Below, in pieces: positions 51,486-63,786 of a stretch of 64,000 nucleotides of DNA. Position numbers and translations under genes: made by a program. Source of the DNA: Candidatus Hydrogenedentota bacterium (lineage in GTDB: Bacteria; Hydrogenedentota; Hydrogenedentia; Hydrogenedentales; SLHB01). The notes beneath the pieces are model-generated. The model worked only from the letters and a program-made list of their open reading frames with translations, made no database searches and had not been told where the DNA came from. Location of the stretch: assembly GCA_963745075.1 (NCBI GenBank), contig CAVUWV010000036.1, positions 160,001-224,000 of the forward strand, in the 5' to 3' direction. How positions within the stretch are numbered: the first letter of the stretch is position 1; the number at the start of each line of letters is the position of its first letter.

Positions 51486-52611
51486 TCAGTGACTGGTCCG
51501 GTATTGCCGGCCCTTCCAATCGACACCCCGGCCCGTAGCACACCGCCACCAGGACGCGACGCCCAAGCCGATCAGCATCGCTTCGGCGAGAGGATGTCCC
51601 AACGCAGACCATAGGGGTTGCCCAAACCGCATGGCAAGCAATACGCGGGACGCAAAAATACATCCCGAAGCCCCCACGAGCGGCGTCCATCCGGGAATGC
51701 CGGCTAACGCCATGGGCAGCGCTGCAAATGGTGTTAGAAAGACAAGGCCGTGGAAAACCAGGAACAACCAGAACACCGCCCCATGATGAAACGCGGGATA
51801 GAAATTCTTTCGGAATCCCTTCCAAATCTCGCTCAACGATCCGTACATGCGCACGCGGACGACATCTTGCCCGTCCAGACAGATACCCCGCTCTCCGCGC
51901 TGACGCCACACACGGGCAATACGCGTATCCTCGAAGATTTCATTGCGAACGGATTCATGCCCCCCGACGCGAGCATAGGCATTTCTCTGCACGAAGATAC
52001 AGGCACCATGGGCAAGACCGAGCGACGTATCCCAGCGCCGCAAGGACAAGGGCGCGGGGAACATGGTGAACACAATGAAGTTCAACATGGGCATAAGCAA
52101 ACGTTCCCAGAACCCGCCCAGAACAAATCCCGGCCAGCAGGACAGGAGCGTGACGTCACGGGCCCGGACCTCGTGAATCATCCGCGCCACAGCTTGCGGC
52201 TCCAGCCGCGCGTCCGCGTCCAAAAACAACAACCATTGGGACCGCGCAGCGGCGGCTAGGCGCGCACAGGCAAAGTTTTTGCCGCACCAGCCGTTCGGCA
52301 ACGCATGGGGTTCGAGCAGCCGGACCCGCTCATCATCGGCGCGGAGCATGCGAACGACTTCGGCGGTGCCATCCGTGGAATGGTCGTCGTACACCAGCAC
52401 TTCCCGCACCGCACCGCCCTGGCGCAGATACGGATTCGATGCACGCTCCCAGTGTCCCGGCTTCGTTGCGCGCAGGGATCAGAACGGACACCGTGGCGAT
52501 CTCGCCCCGTCGAAGGCATGCGCAACGCCGGGCCAAGACACGACGTTCCACATGACGAGCAAGAGCGCGCCGAACGCTCATGAAGCAAACACTGTAGCCA
52601 AGAATCAGCAC
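51486..52611 (-). CDS. GT2 carotenoid glycosyltransferase (CrtQ/CruC-like), frameshifted near the 5' end
   Basis: VSVLIPARNEA, VYDDHSTDGT, GWCGKNFAC, LFLDAD, EDTRIAR, RMY and WKGR.Y. Confidence 0.85.
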
Positions 52612-52623
52612 CGCGGTTCCTTA

Positions 52624-53443
52624 TCATTCAATTGGCGAATGCGTCAGTGCGTGACGACGAATGGCGTCGGCAGTTTGCGATCCCACCGGGCATATCCCGG
52701 AAGGTGTGCCCGGTCCAAATGCGACGGAGGCGACCTGAACCGTCGCTTCCACGAGGGGACTGTGACCGGCTCCGGCCAACGCATGCTCCCGAGCCTGCGG
52801 CCAGACCGATTGCCAGATCACAACCGATTTTTTCACCGCAGTAAACGAACGCTCTCCGCAAACCAGGTCAATCGGGATAGCAAGATCGGAGAACGTTTCC
52901 CAATGCGGCACGCGGCGAAACGCCCGCAACACATCCAGGATAAAGTCGTGGTCCACGTTTTCAAAAGATCTTGTAAGACTGGAATGGCCGGTGCGTTTCT
53001 TTCGCAGGACCGCGTTCGTGAAATGGCGACCCACCGGGTTGGCAAACGTGCTGAAGTACGCGCGTCGCCCGAATTCGCCCCACGTGAAGATTTTGAAATA
53101 GAGCGGCATGTACGCGAACGGATCGATCAGCACTAGCCGCGCCACCCGATCCGGCACTCGTTGAGCCGCCATCATGGCAAGGTTCCCGCCGCCGCAATAG
53201 CCAAGCAGCGTCACGGGCTCGCGCGACACCATGCATATGACGTTCTGCGAGCGCGTCGGCCATCGCATCCAAGGTCCACGCGACGGGTCTTGGCGAAAGA
53301 CCGTACCCCGGAAGGTCGACACTGTACAGCGCGGCCTCCTCCGGCAGATAGGGAACCAGCGGACGGAAGGTGCGGTGATTGCCCGCCCACCCGTGCACCG
53401 CCAGATAGGCCGTTCCACCGGTGCCGTAGGGTTCAACGTGCAC
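52624..53443 (-). CDS. Alpha/beta-fold hydrolase (frameshift ~53240)
   Basis: VHGWAGN and VDLPGYGLS; nucleophile elbow LLGYCGGG; RLVLIDP; C-terminal AGHSP. Confidence 0.82.
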
Positions 53444-54953
53444 GGGCCGCGATCCTTTCCGCCGTCAGACGTCCACCGAGGACGACCATGGGCATCCCCG
53501 TCCCCGGCGTGGTGCTCGCGCCCACATAATACATCCCTTCCACGGTGTCGAGATAGTTCTTCGCACGGAAGGGGCCAACTTGGAATAGATTGTGTGCCGC
53601 ACCAAATGCGGAACCGTCGTAGAGCCCGAAAGTGTCGCGCCAGTCTTCGGGCGTGTATACCCGCTCAAACACAATGCGTTGCGGATCGAGTTCGGCTCCG
53701 TGATGGGCGAGCCGTTCCAGCACGCGATTCTTAACCGAGGGGATCGCGCTGCGCCAATCGAAGCCCGGCATTTCACTGAGCAGCGGGGTCGGCACAAGAA
53801 CGAACATGGCCGCATCGTCTGCCGGCGCGAGGTCCGGATCCGTCTCGGAAGGCACGCTCACGTAGAACGGAAGTCCACGGGGAATCTGGTGGTTGCGCAT
53901 GAGATCATCAAAGGCGCCACGATAATCGTCGGGCAAGTAGATCGTGTGGTGAGGCATGCCCTCGACTTTGCCCCGAATGCCCCAGTAGAACGTCATCACG
54001 CCGCAGGTCATGCGCGTGCGGTCCGTTTTGCGTTGGAGGTCCTCTCCCAGTCCATTCGCGGCCAGCAGCATCGTGTCCGTCGTCGGCACATCCACGTTCG
54101 ACACGACTGCGGAAGCCCGCACACGTTCGCCGTCGGCAAGGTCCAACCCGGTAATCCGGAGATTCTCCATCCGGATCCGGCTGACGCGCCGTCCCGTGTG
54201 AATCTCGACGCCCATATCCCGTGCGAGCCGCTCGATGCCTTCGACCAGACCGTAGATGCCGCCTTTGGGGAGCCACAAGCCATACGCCAGTTCGCCATAG
54301 GGCAGGATGGAAAAGAACCCCGGCAATTCGTGGGGGGAGCCGCCCAGATACATGCCGTAGGAACCCAGTGCCTCTTTGATGTAGCGACTTTTGAAAAAGC
54401 GTCCGAGTTCGCTGTATAGCGAACGCCACACGCTGAGCTTCGCCATCTGACGCGGCGAAAGAGCGCCGATCCACTTCAGCGGATTGTCCTCGTTCCGGGT
54501 CACGAGTTTGTCGAAGGCCAGATTGTATTTTGCCGCGGCATCGCGCAGATAACTCAAGACGCCTGGCGTGGAACCGGGATCAATACGGTCGCACTCGGCC
54601 AACAGTTTCTCGAGATTGCTGGACAACGTGAAATGCGTACCGTCCTGCCACTGAAAACTCACGGACGGTTCGACCGGAAGCAAGGTCACGTAGTCCTCGA
54701 GCCGCCGTCCCGCCGCTTCGAAGAGTTCGTGAAACACCCACGGGTAATTCAACAGCGAGGGTCCCGTATCGAACCGGAAGCCAGCTTCCTCGATGACGTT
54801 CGCCCGGCCGCCGACGCGATCGTTGGCCTCGTACATGACGACGTCGAATCCGGCGACGCGAAGATGGATCGCTGCGCTCAGCCCGCCAAGCCCGGCCCCG
54901 ACAATGACGACGCGGCTCTTAGCCTCGGTCGAGGGTGCGTTTGTCGTGCCCAT
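53433..54953 (-). CDS. crtI: Phytoene desaturase (CrtI/CrtN) family FAD oxidoreductase #1
   Basis: IVGAGLGGL, VGGRA, FRFDTGPS, GSAFG and YYVGASTTPGTGMPMV; directly follows crtB. Confidence 0.88.
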   Translation of the reverse strand: MGTTNAPSTEAKSRVVIVGAGLGGLSAAIHLRVAGFDVVMYEANDRVGGRANVIEEAGFRFDTGPSLLNYPWVFHELFEAAGRRLEDYVTLLPVEPSVSFQWQDGTHFTLSSNLEKLLAECDRIDPGSTPGVLSYLRDAAAKYNLAFDKLVTRNEDNPLKWIGALSPRQMAKLSVWRSLYSELGRFFKSRYIKEALGSYGMYLGGSPHELPGFFSILPYGELAYGLWLPKGGIYGLVEGIERLARDMGVEIHTGRRVSRIRMENLRITGLDLADGERVRASAVVSNVDVPTTDTMLLAANGLGEDLQRKTDRTRMTCGVMTFYWGIRGKVEGMPHHTIYLPDDYRGAFDDLMRNHQIPRGLPFYVSVPSETDPDLAPADDAAMFVLVPTPLLSEMPGFDWRSAIPSVKNRVLERLAHHGAELDPQRIVFERVYTPEDWRDTFGLYDGSAFGAAHNLFQVGPFRAKNYLDTVEGMYYVGASTTPGTGMPMVVLGGRLTAERIAARAR

Positions 54954-54957
54954 GCTC

Positions 54958-55959
54958 TCACCACCCCATGTAGGCGAGCGGGAGCCGCCAGTACTTGCTG
55001 CGCGGCAGTACCCTGAATTTCTCGCGCATCGGCACGCTCTCCCGGTGCGCAACTCCGTTCCGACTTGTGCGAATACGTTCGTTCAATTGACCGTACACGT
55101 CGATACAGGCCTGAATTGCCGTCCGGCTGTCCGGTGCGAAAGCGTCCAGGTCCCGTTGCGCTGCCAGGTAATAGGTCGAGGCGACCGTCGCCACGCGATG
55201 AATGACCCTTTTCAGCCCGTGATGTTGTGTGGGGTTCTGGGTGTCTATATGCTCAATCCCCTCTGCCGCCAACATGTCCAGCGGCAAGTACTGCCTTCCC
55301 CTCCGCTGGTCTTCGCCCGCGTCACGGATGAAATTGGTCAATTGCAGCGCAATACCCAGGCTGCGGGCCGCTTCGATCGCACGGCCGAAGTCGGCGGGGC
55401 GCGCCGGACCATAAATGTGCGCCAGAAAGTACCCGACCACGATGGCGCTCCCGTAGATGTACGAGTCAATGAGGTCTTCCATCGTCTCAAAAGACCGAGG
55501 TTCCACGTCCAACCGCATTGCGTCGAGGAAGGCGCGATAATGGTCTTCCGGAATGCCCGTTTCCCGCACCACCCGGGTGAAGGCCCCAAGGAAACAGGGA
55601 ACCCCGTCGTTCACGGCTTCTTGCGTGGTGCGCGCGCGCAGTCCCCGCTCGTAGCTGTCCCGCCATGCGTCCAGTATTCGCAGCCGCTCCGCGGCCGGAA
55701 GAGGGAAGGTGTCAACGACCTCGTCCGGATACCGAACGGCGGCATACACCGCTTCGACTTGAACACGTTTCCGTGGGGGCAGGAATCGCGTCACCGCAAA
55801 GAAGCTGGTGCTGTAGGTCTGCAACACCGCACGCGCCTGCCGGGTGATGACGTCCCGCGCGGCGTCTTCCGTCGCGGTGTGCACCACCCGGCTGCGCATA
55901 CGGTTCTCCAGTCGCACCCAATCCTCAAGCGACCAGATACTCGTGTCGGAGGTTTTCAT
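54958..55959 (-). CDS. crtB: Phytoene/squalene synthase family (CrtB/CrtM)
   Basis: STSFF, YAAVRYPDEVVD, AMRLD and LGIALQLTNFIRDAGED..RGRQYLP. Confidence 0.92.
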   Translation of the reverse strand: MKTSDTSIWSLEDWVRLENRMRSRVVHTATEDAARDVITRQARAVLQTYSTSFFAVTRFLPPRKRVQVEAVYAAVRYPDEVVDTFPLPAAERLRILDAWRDSYERGLRARTTQEAVNDGVPCFLGAFTRVVRETGIPEDHYRAFLDAMRLDVEPRSFETMEDLIDSYIYGSAIVVGYFLAHIYGPARPADFGRAIEAARSLGIALQLTNFIRDAGEDQRRGRQYLPLDMLAAEGIEHIDTQNPTQHHGLKRVIHRVATVASTYYLAAQRDLDAFAPDSRTAIQACIDVYGQLNERIRTSRNGVAHRESVPMREKFRVLPRSKYWRLPLAYMGW

Positions 55960-56312
55960 CCCGTCTCTCCTTCGCCGGTTTGCTTGTTCTCATCTCGCCC
56001 TGCGGACCGATGCTCCGGCGTTCGCGTGATGGGGAGGACCTGTGCGGACTTCCGCCACGCAGGACGGACGGGCTTGCTTTGCGGGAGTCGGAGGTGATGC
56101 GAGGTGCAAGCAAACCACGCACTGAGGGAGACGCGGCCGAATTCTCCCACGGGCTTCGGCCCGCACAGGCCGGGTAGAGAGGAAGCAAACTCATCGCAGG
56201 CGCTGAGCCGGAGCCGAAACCAGCGGCATCGTGGACGCCCAACCAAACCGAATACTCTGTTGCCGCTTTGACTGACCATCTACCGTCTCGACTCTTTTGC
56301 CCAGGATTGTGT

Positions 56313-56352
56313 TGTCTAAGTGATGTCTAAATAACGTCACGATTGTGACACA
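56313..56352 (-). promoter_or_regulatory. Putative CarH/LitR operator (11-bp-spaced direct repeats) upstream of the crt operon
   Basis: TGTCTAA at 56313 and 56324 (TTAGACA on the minus strand; spacing 11), with weaker copies at 56335 and 56346. CarH operators are tandem 11-bp repeats with TnnACA. Confidence 0.7.
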
Positions 56353-56539
56353 AGATTCCCGAAAAGGCAAAATTATTCTCCCTCCAACACTCAGATGGTC
56401 CAATTATAGACTTAAATCATTTCATAGCAGTCATTTAATAATTTGAGCCAATACGAATTGGCCCCATCGCCACCGTATCCCGATACTCTTCCAACTTCCC
56501 TTTTTCCATCCGGATTGATTCCTGGTTTCGCCATATTTC

Positions 56540-56568
56540 TAGACATTCATTGAACAAATCAGTATAAC
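56540..56568 (+). promoter_or_regulatory. Promoter of the carH-like gene overlapped by TnnACA repeats
   Basis: TAGACA (56540)-N17-TATAAC (56563-56568); TAGACA and TGAACA (56551) are 11 bp apart; the ATG is only 7 nt after the -10. Confidence 0.6.
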
Positions 56569-56575
56569 TGTAAGT

Positions 56576-57517
56576 ATGAGCAGCGAAAAACGGCATCCCA
56601 TTCAAGTGGTCGCGGCCCAGACCGGACTGACCCAGCACGCAATCCGCGCGTGGGAGCGCAGGTACGGCGCCGTGCAGCCCGCGCGTACCCCGACCAATCG
56701 CCGCATGTATTCGGACGACGATATCGCTCGGCTCCGATTACTGTTGCGCGCGACCCAAGAAGGGCGCAGTGTCGGCCAAGTCGCTCAACTTCCAACCGAT
56801 GAACTGCGCGACCTGCTTAGGGATGTGCCGCGCACCGTAGTCGCCCGTCGCAATAGAATCGACGGACCCCCGACACCAGAGACCTTTCTGGCGAACGCCG
56901 TGCAGGCAGTGGAGGAATTGAATGGAGAGAAGCTTGAAGCCGCGCTCGCGGAGGCCGAGACCAGCCTAAGCCAGGTCCGTGTGATTGAAGATGTGGTTCT
57001 GCCGCTGATCGAGGAAGTGGGAGACCGGTGGCGCATCGGGACTCTGCGCGTTGCCCACGAACATCTGGCCTCGAGCGTCGTGCGCGGATTCCTTACGACC
57101 ATGCGGGTAGGGATGCGCGCGCCGGAGCATGCCCCGGTCGTGGTGTTTGCCACGCCCGCCGCGCAGTGGCACGAACTGGGCGCACTTATGGCCGCCGCCG
57201 CCGCCGGTTTGGAAGGGTGGCGCGTGACTTACCTCGGGCCGAATCTGCCTGCGGAAGAAATCGCAGCGGCAGCTCTCACCGTGGATGCGAAGGTCGTTGC
57301 CCTCAGCATCGTGTATCCCGAAGACGATCCGCTACTGGGACACGAATTGCGGAAACTCCGGAAACTTTTGGGGCCAGAGGTCCTCATTCTCGCCGGAGGA
57401 CGCGCCGCGTCAGCCTACCTTCCCGTGCTGCAGCAGGTCGATGCTGTGCATACACCGGATCTGAAATGTCTTCGGCAAGAGTTGCTGCAGGCCCGCCGCC
57501 CCGCGACCACACAGTAG
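56576..57517 (+). CDS. carH: MerR-family cobalamin-binding photoregulator (CarH/LitR)
   Basis: MerR HTH (IRAWERRYG, RRMYS), W-x9-EH (WRIGTLRVAHEH), HELG, YLGPNLP and LAGG; divergent from the crt operon. Confidence 0.88.
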   Translation: MSSEKRHPIQVVAAQTGLTQHAIRAWERRYGAVQPARTPTNRRMYSDDDIARLRLLLRATQEGRSVGQVAQLPTDELRDLLRDVPRTVVARRNRIDGPPTPETFLANAVQAVEELNGEKLEAALAEAETSLSQVRVIEDVVLPLIEEVGDRWRIGTLRVAHEHLASSVVRGFLTTMRVGMRAPEHAPVVVFATPAAQWHELGALMAAAAAGLEGWRVTYLGPNLPAEEIAAAALTVDAKVVALSIVYPEDDPLLGHELRKLRKLLGPEVLILAGGRAASAYLPVLQQVDAVHTPDLKCLRQELLQARRPATTQ

Positions 57518-57518
57518 T

Positions 57519-59420
57519 TCAGTCGCGAGCCCGCGGCGTAATCGTAAGCTCCAGCCGTTTCCCATCGCGCATCACCGCGATGGTGACCGGTTCGCCAATC
57601 TTCAAGGCCTCGATGGCGTACGTGTAGTCGTAAATGTTTTCGATGATCGTGCCGGCAAGTTCGACCACCACGTCGCCGCCTTGTACGCCTGCCTGCGCGG
57701 CCGGTCCACCTTCGGCCACGCCGGAGAGTTTCAGTCCGTTGCCGCTATCCTGTGAATAGTCCGGGATCGTGCCGAGATACGCGCGTAAACCCGCGCCGCC
57801 CTCGCGCTCCGGCGGTTTCGCCTGCGGGATGTAGTCTGGCGCCTCGGCGCATTCGGCGAGGTACGCGGTCGCTTCCGCCATGAACCGGGCGACTTGCGCG
57901 GCCCCGGCGTAATTGATCGTACTGGGCGTGTCGCGCGGCGTATGATACTCCTCGTGCGCACCCGTGAAGGCATTGATGAACGGTACGCCGCGCACGAAGA
58001 ACAACGTCGCGTCGGTAGGCAGATAGCTGTCGTCTTGCGTGGTGACTTGGAGATTGCCCGCCGCCTCGCGCCATTTCGGGATCAGACCTTCCCAGATCGA
58101 ACTCGAACCCACGCCGCCGATGATGACGGACTCGCGCAGACGGCCAATCATGTCCATGTTGACGTACGCGGCGATCGCCGGACGCAACGGTTCGGATTCG
58201 GGGATGTCGCGATAGGTTTGCGCAAACTTCGCCGAACCGAGGAGCCCCAGCTCTTCGCCCGACCACGCGGCAAAGAGGATGTCGCGTTTCGGCTTGAACG
58301 CGCCCGCCTTCTTTTGGTTTACAAGATACTGGGCAATCTCAAACATCCCGGACACGCCGGACGCATTGTCATCTGCGCCGTAATGGATGCGGTTCGTCTC
58401 GTAGTCCCGGGCGAGCGATCCCGTACCCGAACCGCGGCCGAGATGATCGATGTGCGCTCCTACGACAACTACACCCTCTTCGGCTGGGTCGTCCGCAGGA
58501 AGCCGCGCCAAAACGTTGCGGCCCGTGCGTTTCTCCTGGACGATATCCACGTCCACGCGCAGGGTCGTGTCCGGCGGTTCAAAACCCATCACCGGATCGC
58601 CGGTGTCCAATTCGGATTGCACCGCCTCCAACGTGCGGCCCGCCGTGCTCAGCAGGGATTCGCCGACCCGGTCGTCTACCGAAACGGCTGCGATGCTGGT
58701 ACCCGAGAACGACGCGTCGAAACTCAAGTTCACCAGCGGATCGGACACCTTGGAATTGGGTCCGCTCACGAACACGATTCCCAGCGCGCCCCGGTCGCGG
58801 GCAATCATGGCCTTGTAGCGGAGTCCGGCGTACTGGGTGAGGTGCAGTCGCCGTTCCTTGGACACATTCTCCGGGATATACCGGAACACGACGACCCACT
58901 TGTCCTTCACGTCGAGGTGGACGTAGGAATCGTATTCGGGGAGGTCCTCATGTTCCGGCGCGACGATGCCGTAGCCGGCGAACGCAACCGGCGCTTCAAA
59001 TGTGCCCGTTTTCGAGAACGCCACCGGACGCCACGCCTCGTCCACGGGATAACAATCCGGTTCCGGCGCACCGGGCCGCACGACGCATAACTGATTATCG
59101 GGCCCCAACGACGCGCCCGCCGTGAAGTCGAAGGACTGAAACCACGACCCGTCATCGCCCGCCCGTTCCAGGCCCAGCCATTCGAAAACCTCCGCGGCGT
59201 AATCCGTCGCGCGGTGTTCTCCCGGCGTGCCGGTAGAACGTCCCTCCATGACCTCCGAAGCAAGGTAATCCAGATGGAGCCGTATGTCCCCGGGAAGGAT
59301 CTCCGGCACCGTAGTGGCAAGATCCGGCGGCTCCGCCTCCGCCCGCGCGAAGGAGGGAAGCGTCGGGAAAACAAGACACGCTGCAAAAGTGACGAGCCGG
59401 ATAACGCCAGTAGGTAGCAT
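57519..59420 (-). CDS. M28 family peptidase with PA and PDZ domains
   Basis: Signal peptide; GAHIDHLG, GADDNASG, SGEELGLLGS, NMDMIGR and YHTP.D; C-terminal PDZ YLGTIPDY. Confidence 0.92.
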   Translation of the reverse strand: MLPTGVIRLVTFAACLVFPTLPSFARAEAEPPDLATTVPEILPGDIRLHLDYLASEVMEGRSTGTPGEHRATDYAAEVFEWLGLERAGDDGSWFQSFDFTAGASLGPDNQLCVVRPGAPEPDCYPVDEAWRPVAFSKTGTFEAPVAFAGYGIVAPEHEDLPEYDSYVHLDVKDKWVVVFRYIPENVSKERRLHLTQYAGLRYKAMIARDRGALGIVFVSGPNSKVSDPLVNLSFDASFSGTSIAAVSVDDRVGESLLSTAGRTLEAVQSELDTGDPVMGFEPPDTTLRVDVDIVQEKRTGRNVLARLPADDPAEEGVVVVGAHIDHLGRGSGTGSLARDYETNRIHYGADDNASGVSGMFEIAQYLVNQKKAGAFKPKRDILFAAWSGEELGLLGSAKFAQTYRDIPESEPLRPAIAAYVNMDMIGRLRESVIIGGVGSSSIWEGLIPKWREAAGNLQVTTQDDSYLPTDATLFFVRGVPFINAFTGAHEEYHTPRDTPSTINYAGAAQVARFMAEATAYLAECAEAPDYIPQAKPPEREGGAGLRAYLGTIPDYSQDSGNGLKLSGVAEGGPAAQAGVQGGDVVVELAGTIIENIYDYTYAIEALKIGEPVTIAVMRDGKRLELTITPRARD

Positions 59421-59581
59421 GTTCGTTCCTTGCAGTAACTCCGAGAAGAAGAGGAGTATAGCATGGCACACGCATCGCCCGTTGCGAAATTCGGCGCTCC
59501 GGCGCATAATGTCATAGAGACGTGGGGAGAGCGTCGTCCTGGACGGTGCAGCACCTACCGGCACATCAGGGGGAAGACCGG

Positions 59582-59929
59582 ATGAAAGCCTTGGGCTATT
59601 TGTTTGCCGGATTCTTGATTGTATTGGGGATGCTGTTCTGTGTGGCCGCCGGCGCCACCGGCCTTTGGCAACGATGGATATTGGGCGGAATCCTTTTGGG
59701 TTCGGGCCTTGCCGTTGTGTACTTCCTGCGCATGAAGACCCCCGAAACCCGCGTTTCCGTCACCCAACAAATCGACCTCACCGGGGATGTCAGCCTCGAA
59801 AAACTGACGTGTAAGAATTGCGGCGCCACATTGGATTCCAAGAGCGTGTCCGTGCGTGCCGGGGCGGTATTCGTGAGCTGTCCCTATTGCGAAACCGAAT
59901 ACCAGATGGAGGAGGCACCGAAATGGTAA
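59582..59929 (+). CDS. Small membrane protein with a C-terminal zinc ribbon
   Basis: Two TM helices, then CKNCGATLD...CPYCETEYQMEEAPKW; stop overlaps the radical SAM start. Confidence 0.8.
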   Translation: MKALGYLFAGFLIVLGMLFCVAAGATGLWQRWILGGILLGSGLAVVYFLRMKTPETRVSVTQQIDLTGDVSLEKLTCKNCGATLDSKSVSVRAGAVFVSCPYCETEYQMEEAPKW

Positions 59930-61294
59930 CCACCCTCAAAAAGAAGATGCGCGACATCTTCGGACAGCCCGGGCCGGTCCAACCGGGTCTTTACCACTAC
60001 CAGCGTGAGTTGGCGGATCGGTACATGCGCCTGCATCTGCGAATCGACCCCGACCATACCGGCATGCTTTCCGTGAATGCGTCGGGCGTGCTCCATCTCA
60101 ACGAAACGGCCGCCGCCATGATGAAGCAGGTCCTCGACGGCAAGTCGAAAGCCGACGCCGTAACATGGACGAGGAAAGTCTACCGCGGAGCGAAAAAAGG
60201 CAGCGTCGAAAAGGACTACGACCAGATTCTCGATATCGTGCGGCACTTGGAAACCACCGAAGACGCGTGTCCGGTCTATTCCGTGAACGTTCCCTCCATC
60301 CCGCCGTTTGGCCGCAAACCTTCCGCGCCGTACCGTGCGGATCTCGCGTTGACCTACGCATGCAACGACAACTGCACCCACTGCTACGTTGCGCGCCGGC
60401 CCGAAGACGTGGAGCCCCTAAAGCTCGATGAATGGATTCGAGTACTGGAAAAGCTTCGCGACATCGGTGTGCCGCACGTATGCTTCACAGGCGGCGAAGC
60501 CACGGTCAGCCCGCATCTCAGGGATCTTGTCGAGAAAGCGGAAGACCTCGGCATCATCACGGGGCTCTTGACCAACGGGCGCAAGCTCTCGGATCGTGAG
60601 TTCACCAAGCGCCTGTGCGACGCCGGTCTTGACCACGTGCAAATCACGATCGAAAGCCATGACGAAATGGTCCACGACCGCATGGTGGACACGGAAGGCG
60701 CGTACAAGGAAACGGTCGAGGGGATTCGCAACGCCCTCGCGGAAGACATCTACCTCGTCACCAATACCACCTTGTGCGCGCTTAACGCGGACGACATCGA
60801 AGAGACTATCGAATTCCTGCACGGCCTCGGCGTGCGGCAGTTCGCCATGAACTCCTTCATCAACACGGGACGCGCGCCGAAATCGGGTCTCGGCATCGAC
60901 GAAGCAGGATTTGGAACCCATCCTGGGACTCGTCACGGAGAAGGCCGACGAGTTGGGGATGCGTTTCATCTGGTACAGTCCTACCCAGTATTGCGTGCTG
61001 AATCCCGCCGAAATGGGCGTCGGATTCAAACGCTGCACCGCCGCCGAATACAACATCTGCATCGAACCCGACGGTGCGGTCCTGCCGTGTCAGAGTTACT
61101 ACAAACCCGTGGGCAACTTCCTCAAGGATGACTGGAAATCCATCTGGGAAAGCCCCTTGTTCCTGGCGATTCGCAACCGAACGGAACTGCCGGAAGATTG
61201 CCGCGAATGCCCCGACATGGACGTCTGCGGCGGCGGATGCCCCTTGAGCGGCGGCGATCAGTTCCTGTGTTCGGACAGTCCTTCGGAGGGATAG
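59923..61294 (+). CDS. Radical SAM/SPASM protein with N-terminal PqqD/RRE-like domain (one frameshift ~60905)
   Basis: LHLNETAAAM (RRE-like); CNDNCTHC, FTGGE and LLTNG; SPASM CTAAEYNICIEPDGAVLPC...CRECPDMDVCGGGCP in the 60911 frame; ~456 aa reconstructed. Confidence 0.9.
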
Positions 61295-61298
61295 CGTG

Positions 61299-63139
61299 AT
61301 GAAACGCCTCGCACTTGTACTCATCCTAGCCGCCGGGCTTGCCGTCGTTGCGCACGCGCAAAACTATCGCTTCGCCATTCCCGAGGCCGAAGTCACGGTT
61401 ACCATCCAACCTGACGGTGCCGCGCTGATTCAGTACCGGCTGACATTCACGTGCCGGTCCGGTGCACATCCCATCGAACGTCGTAGATATCGGCATGCCC
61501 AACCTGTCAAAACACTCGCCCGGCGGCGCCACGATCGACGGTAACCCAATCCCGCAAAGCAGCGTTCGAATTTCGACCTATCTCAAACCGCGCGGCTCCG
61601 GGTATGAGATCCAACTTGGCCGGCACACGATCCGGCCCGGCCAGACCGGCGTCTTCGAGTTCACGGCGCGCGAACAGAATATGGTCTGGCAGGACACGAC
61701 CAACCCGGACCTGGCATCGTTCCGGTTCACCCCGACCTGGTTTGGTTCCCAATTTGTCGATGGGACCACCCGCTTGACCCTGCGCTACAAGCTGCCAATC
61801 CCGGCGGCGCAATATCCTGCCGCGAAGGATCAAATCCTGTGGCAAAAGAAGGGGCAGGACTTCGATGTCAAAGGCGTGATGGAAGGCGAAGACGTCGCCT
61901 CGGTCGCCTGGGTGGATACCGTGCGGCTGACGGGCCCCCACGAATACGGCGTCTCCTTTCCCAAGCGCTTCGTGACCAACGTGCGGAAAGACTCGATCTG
62001 GGGCCTGTTCCTGCGCTGGTTCAAGGGGAATCCCGACGTCGCAATTCATGAGCGGCGTCGCATTGCTCTTCGTGTTCAGCATCTGCTTCTTCATGCTGAC
62101 CCGCGGCACGGGGTTCGCCCTCTACATTATCGCCACGGCGGGGTTCATCTACGGGATGTACCAGAGCGTCGTGTTTCATTTGTGGTTGTACCTGGCGATG
62201 CTCGCGCTTGTGTTGCTCGTATGCCTGATGCGGCAGCGCCGCAAACGCCGGTACTTCCCGGCCGAACTGTGCCGCGAAGGCGGTGGGTTGAAGCGCGGCC
62301 TGACCGCGGTCGAAGCCGCCATCCTTCTCGAAATCCCCTTGAACAAGATCTTGACCATGGTGATCTTTGGACTCGCCAAGAAAGGGCTCATTGAAGTCCG
62401 CGAAGAAGACCCCATGCGCATCGAAGTCGTCGCCACACACCGGAAATTGCGGGTCTGGACCCGGCCGGACGGAAAAGACGTAAAGATCTGGCCGTTCGAA
62501 GAGTCGTTCCTGCGGATCTTCAAGGACCAGCACGACAAACCCGTCGAAGCCATGAAGTTGGACGAACCGTTTGACGCAGTCATCGAGCGGGTCGTCACGG
62601 CCATGAAAGGGTTTGATCTCAAGGCCACGCGCGAATACTACCGCAGCATCGTCTCGCGCGCTTGGATGATGGTCGAAACGGAAGCGGGATACGAGGCCCG
62701 CTACCAACGGCTCGACCGCCACCTGGAATGGCTGCTGATGGACGATTCGTGGGACCGCCGGTTGAAGGATACCACCGCGGAAACGCCCTATTACCCCAGT
62801 TGGTGGCACGGGTACGGACAAAGCCACGGACCCGTCTTCGGTGGTGGCGTCGCTCCAACTATTCCGTCCGGCGGCACTACGCCGTCGACTTCTTTTGGCA
62901 ACGTCGCCAGTTCCATTGTGGGCCGTTTCGAAGGCACTTCCAGCCGCGTCGTGGGAAGCCTCGACGCGCTTTCTGGCTCGACAGCCGGGACCATTAATCT
63001 TTCCGGTCTTGACAAGTTCACCGGAGAAGTCTTGAGCGGTTTGGCCAAGGGCGGCGGCGGAGGCGGCGGGGGTGGGGGCTGCGCGTGCGCCTGCGCCGGG
63101 TGTGCGTGTGCCTGCGCCTGTGCGGGCGGCGGACGATAA
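61299..63139 (+). CDS. DUF2207-like membrane protein with C-terminal Gly10-(Cys-Ala)n tail (frameshifts ~61477 and ~62040)
   Basis: Signal peptide; V.VTIQPDG..LIQY extracellular domain; three TM helices; RGLTAVEAAILL...LAKKGLIEV; ends GGGGGGGGGGCACACAGCACACACAGGGR; ~612 aa reconstructed. Confidence 0.8.
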
Positions 63140-63147
63140 GGATCGTC

Positions 63148-63786
63148 ATGCCCGCGCCCGAAGAATTACGCGCCATCTATCGCGGGCAAGCGGAGTGGTT
63201 CGCGGGTGAACGCAACCGGCTCCTGCGCAAGGCCGAGATCGCGCGGTGCCGTCGCGTCCTCGATCTCGGGACCGGCACCGGCGAACTCCTGGAAAACCTG
63301 GATCGGCGGGCGGCCGGGTTCGCCGTCGGCCTCGATGCCGACGGCGCCGTATTACGACTGGCCCGTGGCCGACGGGTTAACGCTCGGGCCGAATCATTGC
63401 CGTTCGCGGACAACGCGTTCGATGTAGTCTTCACCCAAATGTTCTTCCTGTGGGCGTCACCGCTGGAACGTGTCCTCGCAGAAATCTTCCGTATCCTTCA
63501 TCCGGGGAGTATTCTAATCGCCGCAGCCGAACCCGATTACGGCGGCGCCATCGAATATCCGGAAAATGACGCCGGAGCAAAGTCCTTCGAAACGCAACTG
63601 GCACGCGACGGTGCCGACCCGCGCGTCGGCCGCAAGCTGGACGAGGCCATGCGGCGCACGGGATTCGACGTGGAATGCGGCGTACACACCGCGCGCCCTT
63701 TGGAGCGAGCGATAACGGGAACCATTGAAGATGGAGCGTTCTTGTACGTTCCCTATTTTCATTTTCTGGGATGGAAACCCGCGTGA
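63148..63786 (+). CDS. Class I SAM-dependent methyltransferase
   Basis: VLDLGTGTG, AESLPFADNAFDVV and EIFRILHPG..AEPDYG; starts 8 nt after the preceding stop. Confidence 0.9.
   Translation: MPAPEELRAIYRGQAEWFAGERNRLLRKAEIARCRRVLDLGTGTGELLENLDRRAAGFAVGLDADGAVLRLARGRRVNARAESLPFADNAFDVVFTQMFFLWASPLERVLAEIFRILHPGSILIAAAEPDYGGAIEYPENDAGAKSFETQLARDGADPRVGRKLDEAMRRTGFDVECGVHTARPLERAITGTIEDGAFLYVPYFHFLGWKPA

Follow-up and report, generated by a model that had tools for sequence, protein, structure and literature searches.

Introduction

Among the maturation enzymes of ribosomally synthesized peptides with post-translational modifications (RiPPs) that join a radical S-adenosylmethionine (rSAM) domain to a RiPP recognition element (RRE), StsB links Cys2, Cys4 and Cys6 of a CxCxC precursor to the Gly residues of a GxGxG stretch within a hairpin (PMC10288494), and some precursors of the StsA/BlaA class include the string CACAC (supplement rows of PMC10288494). 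StsB, BlaB and SkfB act on short peptides that have a leader at the N-terminus and GxGxG acceptors. For large proteins, validated cases of thioethers or similar marks made by enzymes are few, as the paper on CrpA states (PMC13692751). Nearest among the proven ones is CrpC, an rSAM enzyme that installs thioethers on the 29 kDa protein CrpA of Methanococcus voltae (PMC13692751); CrpA has an N-terminal leader-like region and CxxQ/D repeats (ranthionine), and CrpC has seven Cys in its SPASM domain. The closest proposed case on a membrane protein is that of the TIGR04222 proteins with MNIO (DUF692) enzymes, where an unstructured Gly/Ser/Cys tail is the proposed enzyme substrate (PMC12452194); those tails are diverse, loosely linked to the MNIO enzyme and predicted to be periplasmic. 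Here we consider a stretch of 64,000 nucleotides from a Candidatus Hydrogenedentota bacterium (contig CAVUWV010000036.1, positions 160,001 to 224,000; hereafter the window), in which an integral membrane protein ends in a Cys-Ala tail and is encoded beside an RRE-rSAM-SPASM enzyme. The tail is probably a RiPP-like core carried within a full-size membrane protein and modified in the cytoplasm by that enzyme.

The locus shares with StsB/StsA, BlaB/BlaA and SkfB (PMC10288494; PDB 6efn) an RRE-dependent rSAM enzyme with an auxiliary-cluster domain, CxCxC stretches (here putative donors), a W/YxxP-type sequence as known or putative recognition site, and Tyr and Thr at the first two active-site positions. 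It differs from them in that the proposed core forms the C-terminus of a membrane protein of 550–650 amino acids (aa) in intact loci rather than a short free precursor, the leader-like strand is internal, Cys occurs in both halves of the core, and the scores fall below the family cut-offs. With CrpC/CrpA (TIGR04463) it has in common the RRE-rSAM-SPASM enzyme and a Cys-rich C-terminal protein region; unlike CrpA, the proposed substrate is an integral membrane protein without acidic or Gln acceptors, the enzyme has eight conserved Cys, and a methyltransferase, a zinc ribbon and often a dead paralogue belong to the tail cassette. A search of the CrpC supplements for the string CACAC gave no protein-level match in the two of nine places shown, both of which were DNA. 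The parallel with TIGR04222 lies in the tailed membrane protein and in a weak similarity (16.6 bits) over the same domain, whereas the tail here is invariant, predicted to be cytoplasmic, and tightly linked to an rSAM enzyme.

Results and Discussion

A Cys-Ala block fixed at the protein level

The tail-bearing gene of the window and its parts are the following, where TM stands for transmembrane and pLDDT for predicted local distance difference test:

61299..63139, + strand: tail-bearing membrane protein, about 612 aa in relatives, with +1 breaks near 61477 and 62039
61299..62020, + strand: signal peptide and extracytoplasmic beta-sandwich, predicted from the AlphaFold model of the homologue P0121
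62030..62251, + strand: three predicted TM helices, then RQRRKRR, from the P0121 model and a hydropathy/charge survey
62252..62305, + strand: strand YFPAELCREGGGLKRGLT next to the membrane, proposed from conservation and a complex model as the internal RRE recognition sequence
62306..62810, + strand: predicted cytoplasmic domain, globular and GOLPH3/Vps74-like in fold (pLDDT 88 when modelled by itself)
63050..63079, + strand: Gly10 linker, differing in length and composition between homologues
63080..63139, + strand: tail CACACAGCACACACAGGGR and stop, the proposed modified core, with two CACACA blocks at an odd offset and an AGGGR end

Positions 63050–63139 translate as G10-CACACAGCACACACAGGGR-stop, a tail composed only of C, A, G and R in which the two CACACA blocks are offset by nine residues. 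An earlier note on this DNA, made from the letters alone, had pointed to mixed codons in this stretch, and the translation bears it out: Gly is encoded by GGC, GGA, GGG and GGT, Cys by TGC and TGT, and Ala by GCG and GCC. The chance expectation of the 19-mer is about 4e-17. All six frames of the 6.8 Mb genome together contain two matches to CxCxC-x(1,2)-CxCxC, the tail and one unrelated YC repeat. On its own the 19-mer found nothing to align with in BLAST, which a query so short and simple would lead one to expect.

For conservation, matches and loci that had been gathered with the tail in the query were left out. Among the 45 matches to a tail-less query of 320 residues, 44 end in the tail (the break being AG in 40 and DS in four); the end of the single tail-less match looks like off-frame text. 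At E<=0.001, 1,144 representatives matched a profile of 76 tail-bearing proteins that had each been truncated 30 residues ahead of the first Cys, and the tail terminates 120 of the 150 best matches, the other 30 showing, when judged by eye at the protein level, a stop internal to the body or an off-frame end, and in no case a plain Gly/Ser end. Across 85 tails (from 80 loci and the window) the last ten codons occur as 83 DNA haplotypes that encode one peptide, with mean pairwise differences of 0.048, 0 and 0.588 at the three codon positions; the 80 loci were gathered partly with the tail pattern, and they show synonymous freedom rather than the frequency of the tail. The tail is thereby seen to be real and selected as a peptide, with synonymous sites saturated while the peptide is fixed, in keeping with the earlier claim of selection at the protein level.

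What is fixed is the Cys-Ala block only. In a set of 272 tails the last eight residues are identical in 271–272, Cys stands at −17, −15, −10, −8 and −6 in at least 267, and exactly one odd (three-residue) step in the Cys spacing is present in 265, while the run of G, S, R or H ahead of the first Cys ranges from 0 to 20 residues. The earlier inclusion of Gly10 in the selected C-terminus thus does not survive the comparison, and the description of Cys alternating with Ala holds for the repeat as such but not strictly, the single Ala-Gly break being itself conserved.

That the tail might be a low-complexity DNA repeat or an assembly artefact finds a footing in the indel-rich assembly (G000), in which three of eight unrelated genes mapped from relatives are split by frameshifts, a load that calls for caution with any apparent pseudogene in it. 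The saturation of synonymous sites around a fixed peptide refutes this idea, and the tail recurs in hundreds of independent assemblies, leaving the artefact with a negligible probability. The window's own copy is also split: tblastn of intact relatives, spread over three frames, places two +1 single-base insertions in the tail gene at about 61477 and 62039 and one +1 break in the upstream rSAM gene at about 60905. These frames are open in all five genomes of the same genus; base 61477 is missing from a public contig otherwise identical over 270 nucleotides, and a contig 90% alike has one base fewer at 62041. The break near 60905 has no read coverage. The three frameshifts look like assembly errors.

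Architecture and topology of the tail-bearing protein

The AlphaFold model of P0121, an intact relative, has a mean pLDDT of 82 and runs from a signal helix through a beta-sandwich, three helices (245–267, 272–288 and 290–313), a globular domain and two further helices to a disordered tail. It agrees with the earlier proposal of a signal peptide, an extracellular domain and three TM helices. The predicted ectodomain resembles ribophorin I (oligosaccharyltransferase subunit 1) and the N-domains of M1 aminopeptidases (Z 14.1, root-mean-square deviation (rmsd) 3.1, 180 aligned residues). The best structure matches of the modelled cytoplasmic domain are GOLPH3 (3kn1; Z 7.4, rmsd 4.3, 156/187 residues) and Vps74 (2zih; Z 6.2), followed by a match at Z 5.0 over 53 residues; Foldseek returned nothing for this domain at E<=0.001, the comparison with GOLPH3/Vps74 (GPP34) having E 1.5. 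The parallel would be one of fold only, and with Z under 8 it may arise from a common arrangement.

From the AlphaFold model, hydropathy and charge, the location of the tail is most likely cytoplasmic. The motif RQRRKRR lies at 62231–62251, and a positive net charge directly past the last helix is present in 207 of 210 homologues. In one of the two subfamilies there is a single helix (53/58), and for the other, crude window calls give two or three helices in 143 of 148 while the model gives three. An odd number of helices after a cleaved signal peptide would place the tail inside the cell, where the earlier note had put it by the positive-inside rule.

The same note had likened the protein to DUF2207, a likeness that shrinks to that of a distant look-alike. 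The gathering scores of DUF2207 (PF09972/PF20990) are not reached, with one of 76 members matching DUF2207_C (E 0.048) and P0125 scoring 13.1 against a cut-off of 33 bits; in the Atlas, the language-model neighbours are DUF2207 clusters at 0.96 (16% share) and 0.93 (99% share; the DUF2207_C cluster). By sequence, DUF2207 proteins are distant relatives only, similar in architecture and set apart by the fixed Cys tail and the maturase cassette seen here. The cut-off of TIGR04222 (43 bits) is likewise not reached by the piece encoded in the window (16.6 bits), and P0121 has no match; P0121, L009, the window tail and two ACHS-type proteins (see below) gave no match to the CXXX-repeat rSAM target family at E<=1.

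Several variants of the protein were noted in passing. In the loci L007, L018, L051 and L052 it is tandem-duplicated, with both copies tailed and one enzyme common to them. The proteins P0102, P0104 and P0108–P0120 reach 760–930 aa with extra N-terminal extracellular domains (PF06439 and PF13385 for some), and these longer members suggest a variable ligand-binding ectodomain. In L065 (9749–10750, − strand) and L066 (11016–11870, − strand) there is a short paralogue with TM helices, the docking motif and the GOLPH3-like domain but with neither ectodomain nor Cys tail; it lies directly past the active enzyme on the opposite strand, and a tailed copy is present in the same locus.

A cassette inherited with the tail

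In the window the order of genes is zinc-ribbon membrane protein, RRE-rSAM-SPASM enzyme, tail protein and methyltransferase, the partners of the tail protein being:

59582..59929, + strand: small membrane protein with two predicted hydrophobic helices, a C-terminal C4 zinc ribbon and an EEAPKW end, also dedicated to the cassette
59923..61294, + strand: RRE (PqqD-like)-rSAM-SPASM enzyme, the proposed maturase (PF04055, PF13186, PF05402)
63148..63786, + strand: class I SAM-dependent methyltransferase, a dedicated cassette member (PF08241)

The zinc-ribbon matches of the first of these to Pfam are weak and all under the cut-off; its four Cys and terminal Trp are invariant in 61 homologues. Of the 80 loci, many of them cut by contig ends and with members called by profile thresholds, 60 show the enzyme, 64 the zinc ribbon, 51 the methyltransferase and 56 a second enzyme copy that is dead. 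CxxxCxxC is missing from all 48 aligned sequences of this dead copy; a search of the whole source genome found no such copy.

Across 436 genomes, all 35 with the tail protein have the adjoining enzyme and the methyltransferase, figures that are counts and not statistics, kin not being independent. In the host's own phylum the full tail protein occurs in 10 of 135 genomes, and the enzyme (E<=1e-124) and methyltransferase in the same 10, the methyltransferase being on a separate contig in three. In a second sample, 301 genomes from the phylum of an Anaerolineales locus, the tail protein is present in at least 25 (a floor set by a stricter first look) and the enzyme in the same 25 on the same contig; the methyltransferase occurs in those 25 and G139 plus one weak extra match, the zinc ribbon in 26 (the 25 tail genomes and G139), and the dead enzyme copy in 22 of the 25 and in G337. 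Identities of protein and enzyme correlate over 49 loci (Mantel rho 0.82, 0/999 permutations), which reflects shared inheritance only and not co-evolution. Named records span Hydrogenedentota, Chloroflexota, Planctomycetota, Armatimonadota, Cloacimonadota and Deltaproteobacteria, with two archaeal labels.

This inheritance of the tail protein with its own enzyme and methyltransferase points to a modification on the whole membrane protein and not on a small peptide. Release of a modified tail as a free peptide product, which the earlier note had entertained, would fit the Gly-rich linker and compact core, which are like those of precursor peptides, and three such fragments have been scored as precursors by RODEO. 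The recurring neighbours of the 80 loci include no conserved protease or exporter, and the tail, predicted to be cytoplasmic, sits on a protein with conserved folded domains and without a conserved cleavage motif; release is therefore not favoured and is very improbable.

Some loci show further arrangements of these genes. The dead rSAM paralogue is fused to the N-terminus of the tail protein in the P0065 cluster and L047 and apparently in P0046 and P0083. The P0065 fusion is real, being found in eight of nine members (993–996 aa) of one planctomycete cluster from four sources; the junctions differ in P0046 and P0083. In Chloroflexota the genes for the active and the dead enzyme often have between them one for a stand-alone PAS-fold protein of 113 aa (L006, L009, L013 and others; 18/80 loci).

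An internal strand as the putative RRE docking site

Right past the membrane the homologues carry the motif Y-[LF]-P-[PA]-x-[AILV] followed by E-G-x-G-[IL]-K-R-G-L-T, with Y318 conserved in 121 of 122, P320 in 114, E326 in 111 and the RG pair in all 122. The strand is disordered in models of the monomer without a partner. A complex was modelled from the intact L002 enzyme and residues 314–619 of P0121 (95% identical to the L002 protein), and it scored 0.77 against 0.00 for the best of three controls; among solved pairs 116 of 157 attain the mark for this score, among mismatched pairs 2 of 215. The runs have at least 43% of contacts in common, the partner pLDDT is at least 69, and the predicted contacts set enzyme residues 55–63, 85–104 and 117–130, the RRE region, on partner residues 315–335. 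W/Y/LxxP-type recognition sequences are described for the PqqD-type RREs of PqqD, FusE and StsC (PMC12710340). We propose from the model that the RRE recognition site is this internal juxtamembrane strand, about 280 residues before the tail, and not the Gly linker. A first guess, which had placed the RRE on the LSGxD helix beside the linker, found no support, the confident contacts of the model being at 315–335 instead. The earlier suggestion of a core-like segment offered to an Fe-S enzyme is supported by the co-occurrence and the docking model; Gly10 itself is not under selection.

A sister system with (ACHS)n tails

Six more genomes of the host phylum have a weak match to the body of the protein. 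In these, and in others whose enzyme scores midway, the architecture is the same, with an (ACHS)n end and, alongside, a sister enzyme of about 33% identity, and the cassette methyltransferase is missing; at the position of the docking strand the ACHS proteins have W-x-P-P-[RK]-[IL]. As the distant ACHS homologues adjoin the sister enzyme, the type of tail follows the enzyme subfamily.

Sister loci include L100 (2476–4053), L101 (2747–4465), L102, L103, L107, L108, L109 and L111. Their proteins end in (ACHS)n-ACVSGGSH or (ACHS/ACVHD)n, and adjoining them are the gene of a related RRE-rSAM-SPASM enzyme and a further conserved gene, of membrane or zinc-ribbon type.

The enzymes and the chemistry of the tail

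The RRE domain (PF05402) scores 27.6 against 23.4 bits in the intact L002 enzyme, and the piece in the window, at 22.3, is just under. The window enzyme has its CxxxCxxC at 60361–60384, and both this motif and the SPASM motif Cx2Cx5Cx3C are present in 55 of 55 homologues, with eight near-invariant Cys in the SPASM region. By sequence the closest solved relative is the sactisynthase SkfB (E 1.9e-29; best PDB match), with PqqE nearly tied. The cut-offs of the sactisynthase families are not reached (SkfB 91.8 of 300 bits, AlbA 80.2 of 850, StsB 71.4 of 625), and TIGR04463 is absent among the best 25 of 76 families listed for the enzyme. At the six active-site-proximal positions defined in PMC10288494 the cassette enzyme has Y,T,N/L,T,Q,S, where StsB has Y,T,I,S,K,L, SkfB Y,T,F,S,Q,L and CteB F,F,T,S,H,Q. 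The profile, with three exact matches to SkfB, two to StsB and none to CteB, is nearer SkfB/StsB than CteB but is not diagnostic. For the methyltransferase the best PDB match of its profile is LahSB, a peptide C-terminal carboxyl-methyltransferase; the match covers the SAM-binding half only and is tied with unrelated enzymes, and it is a lead only. The invariant terminal GGGR together with the dedicated methyltransferase suggests C-terminal or thiol methylation.

From these observations the following pathway might be envisaged. The protein would be inserted with its beta-sandwich outside and its C-terminus inside, as the model and the charge distribution imply, whereupon, by the complex model, the RRE may bind Y-x-P-[P/A]-x-[I/L] past the last TM helix as a leader that precedes the core by about 280 residues. 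The flexible Gly/Ser linker could then bring the Cys-Ala block to the active site, where the enzyme would make thioethers from Cys-S to the C-alpha of Ala or Gly across a hairpin; because the CACACA blocks stand at an odd offset, one antiparallel register pairs every Cys with Ala, and the neighbouring register pairs Cys with Cys. The methyltransferase might perhaps then cap the free carboxylate of the C-terminal Arg or the seventh Cys. The product would remain on the membrane protein, giving this receptor-like protein a cytoplasmic tag that is rigid or binds metal. Thioether stapling is the likeliest chemistry, if at somewhat less than an even chance, and some other radical chemistry on the tail is distinctly less likely. 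The picture in full, in which the rSAM enzyme at the internal leader staples the Cys-Ala hairpin (possibly as a Cys-to-Ala double ladder), the methyltransferase caps the C-terminus, and the dead paralogue reads or shields the mark, is doubtful in its entirety.

On the same substrate, and sharing the probability given above to a modified core, the enzyme might instead oxidise Cys, turning Xaa-Cys into 5-thiooxazole or a related group as an anaerobic counterpart of the copper-binding tails made by MNIOs. The Ala-Cys unit is common to the CA and ACHS tail families; the rSAM-SPASM enzyme SbtM forms thiooxazoles from Cys (PMC11002830); a link exists between MNIO enzymes and the Cys-tailed membrane proteins of TIGR04222 (PMC12452194); and eight SPASM Cys suit fully ligated redox clusters. 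On the other side, the SbtM model (TIGR04082) gives the cassette enzyme 67.1 bits against a cut-off of 350, the nearest solved relative is the sactisynthase noted above (with its near tie), and heterocycles made residue by residue would not need the conserved parity break. We regard oxidation as unlikely.

It is also conceivable that the tail stays unmodified, its six or seven thiolates binding a metal or an Fe-S cluster on a hairpin (as sensor, store or cluster carrier) and the enzyme docking for another purpose. This would be served by the second register, which aligns three cross-strand Cys-Cys pairs (−19/−6, −17/−8 and −15/−10), by the zinc-ribbon protein in the cassette, by the complex model not having put the tail in the active site, and by the docking motif being kept in the tail-less paralogue. 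It leaves unexplained the invariant Ala spacers and GGGR end, the dedicated methyltransferase limited to genomes with the CA tail, and the change of enzyme subfamily with tail type, and it appears rather improbable.

The modified core remains the preferred reading, and a number of points weigh against it. The proline of YxxP is present in only 69 of 122 homologues, the clade of the window having Ala there; no tail residues are among the confident contacts of the complex model, and the score of that model may come partly from likeness to solved RRE-leader complexes. The tail-less paralogue at L065 and L066 may mean that the enzyme has a tail-independent partner. Every acceptor slot of the StsA register is Cys in the tail and not Gly. 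The SPASM region is without the usual C-terminal ligand, and were all eight of its Cys on iron, no site would be open for a substrate thiolate. The match of the active-site profile is partial only, and Tyr and Thr at the first two positions are common among SPASM enzymes that make no thioethers. Finally, 102 of 210 homologues were called as having a further hydrophobic segment past the docking motif, and its passage through the membrane would put the tail outside, whereas in the models the segment is buried in the globular domain.

Prior record and significance

Searches of the main text of open papers for the exact motif strings and combined descriptions found no paper, one supplement being known to hold the motif and others possibly doing so. 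That supplement (PMC10288494, 2023) has three C-terminal fragments of the tail family, about 80–180 aa long, in group 40 ('Other Uncharacterized') of its sequence similarity network, beside rSAM accessions and as RODEO-predicted sactipeptide or ranthipeptide precursors, and one ACHS fragment as well. They are given there as free precursors, not recognised as the end of a membrane protein and with no chemistry shown, and the accessible main text does not discuss the group 40 fragments. No curated family names any part of the cassette. The tail system belongs to no named family tested and would work like RRE-dependent RiPP maturation, with an internal leader and the end of an integral membrane protein as substrate; in the main text of open papers no description was found of such a mark on an integral membrane protein that has its recognition strand within it.

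If true, this would extend RiPP chemistry to the regulatory modification of an integral membrane protein, in bacteria as well as archaea, by a dedicated pathway that processes the tail of a receptor-like membrane protein in both domains, with the dead paralogue fused to that protein in one lineage. Precursor-mining tools miscall such tails as free peptides, and the 19-residue tag with its docking strand could offer a portable means for site-directed protein stapling.

Neighbouring genes

The divergent upstream gene at 57519–59564 (− strand) was considered as a cassette member and rejected, as it is not among the recurring neighbours; from its motifs it is probably an M28-type peptidase with PA and PDZ-like parts. 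At 51486–57517 the list of open reading frames shows, by eye, apparent carotenoid genes (a glycosyltransferase, a phytoene desaturase-like and a phytoene synthase-like enzyme) and a MerR/B12-binding regulator.

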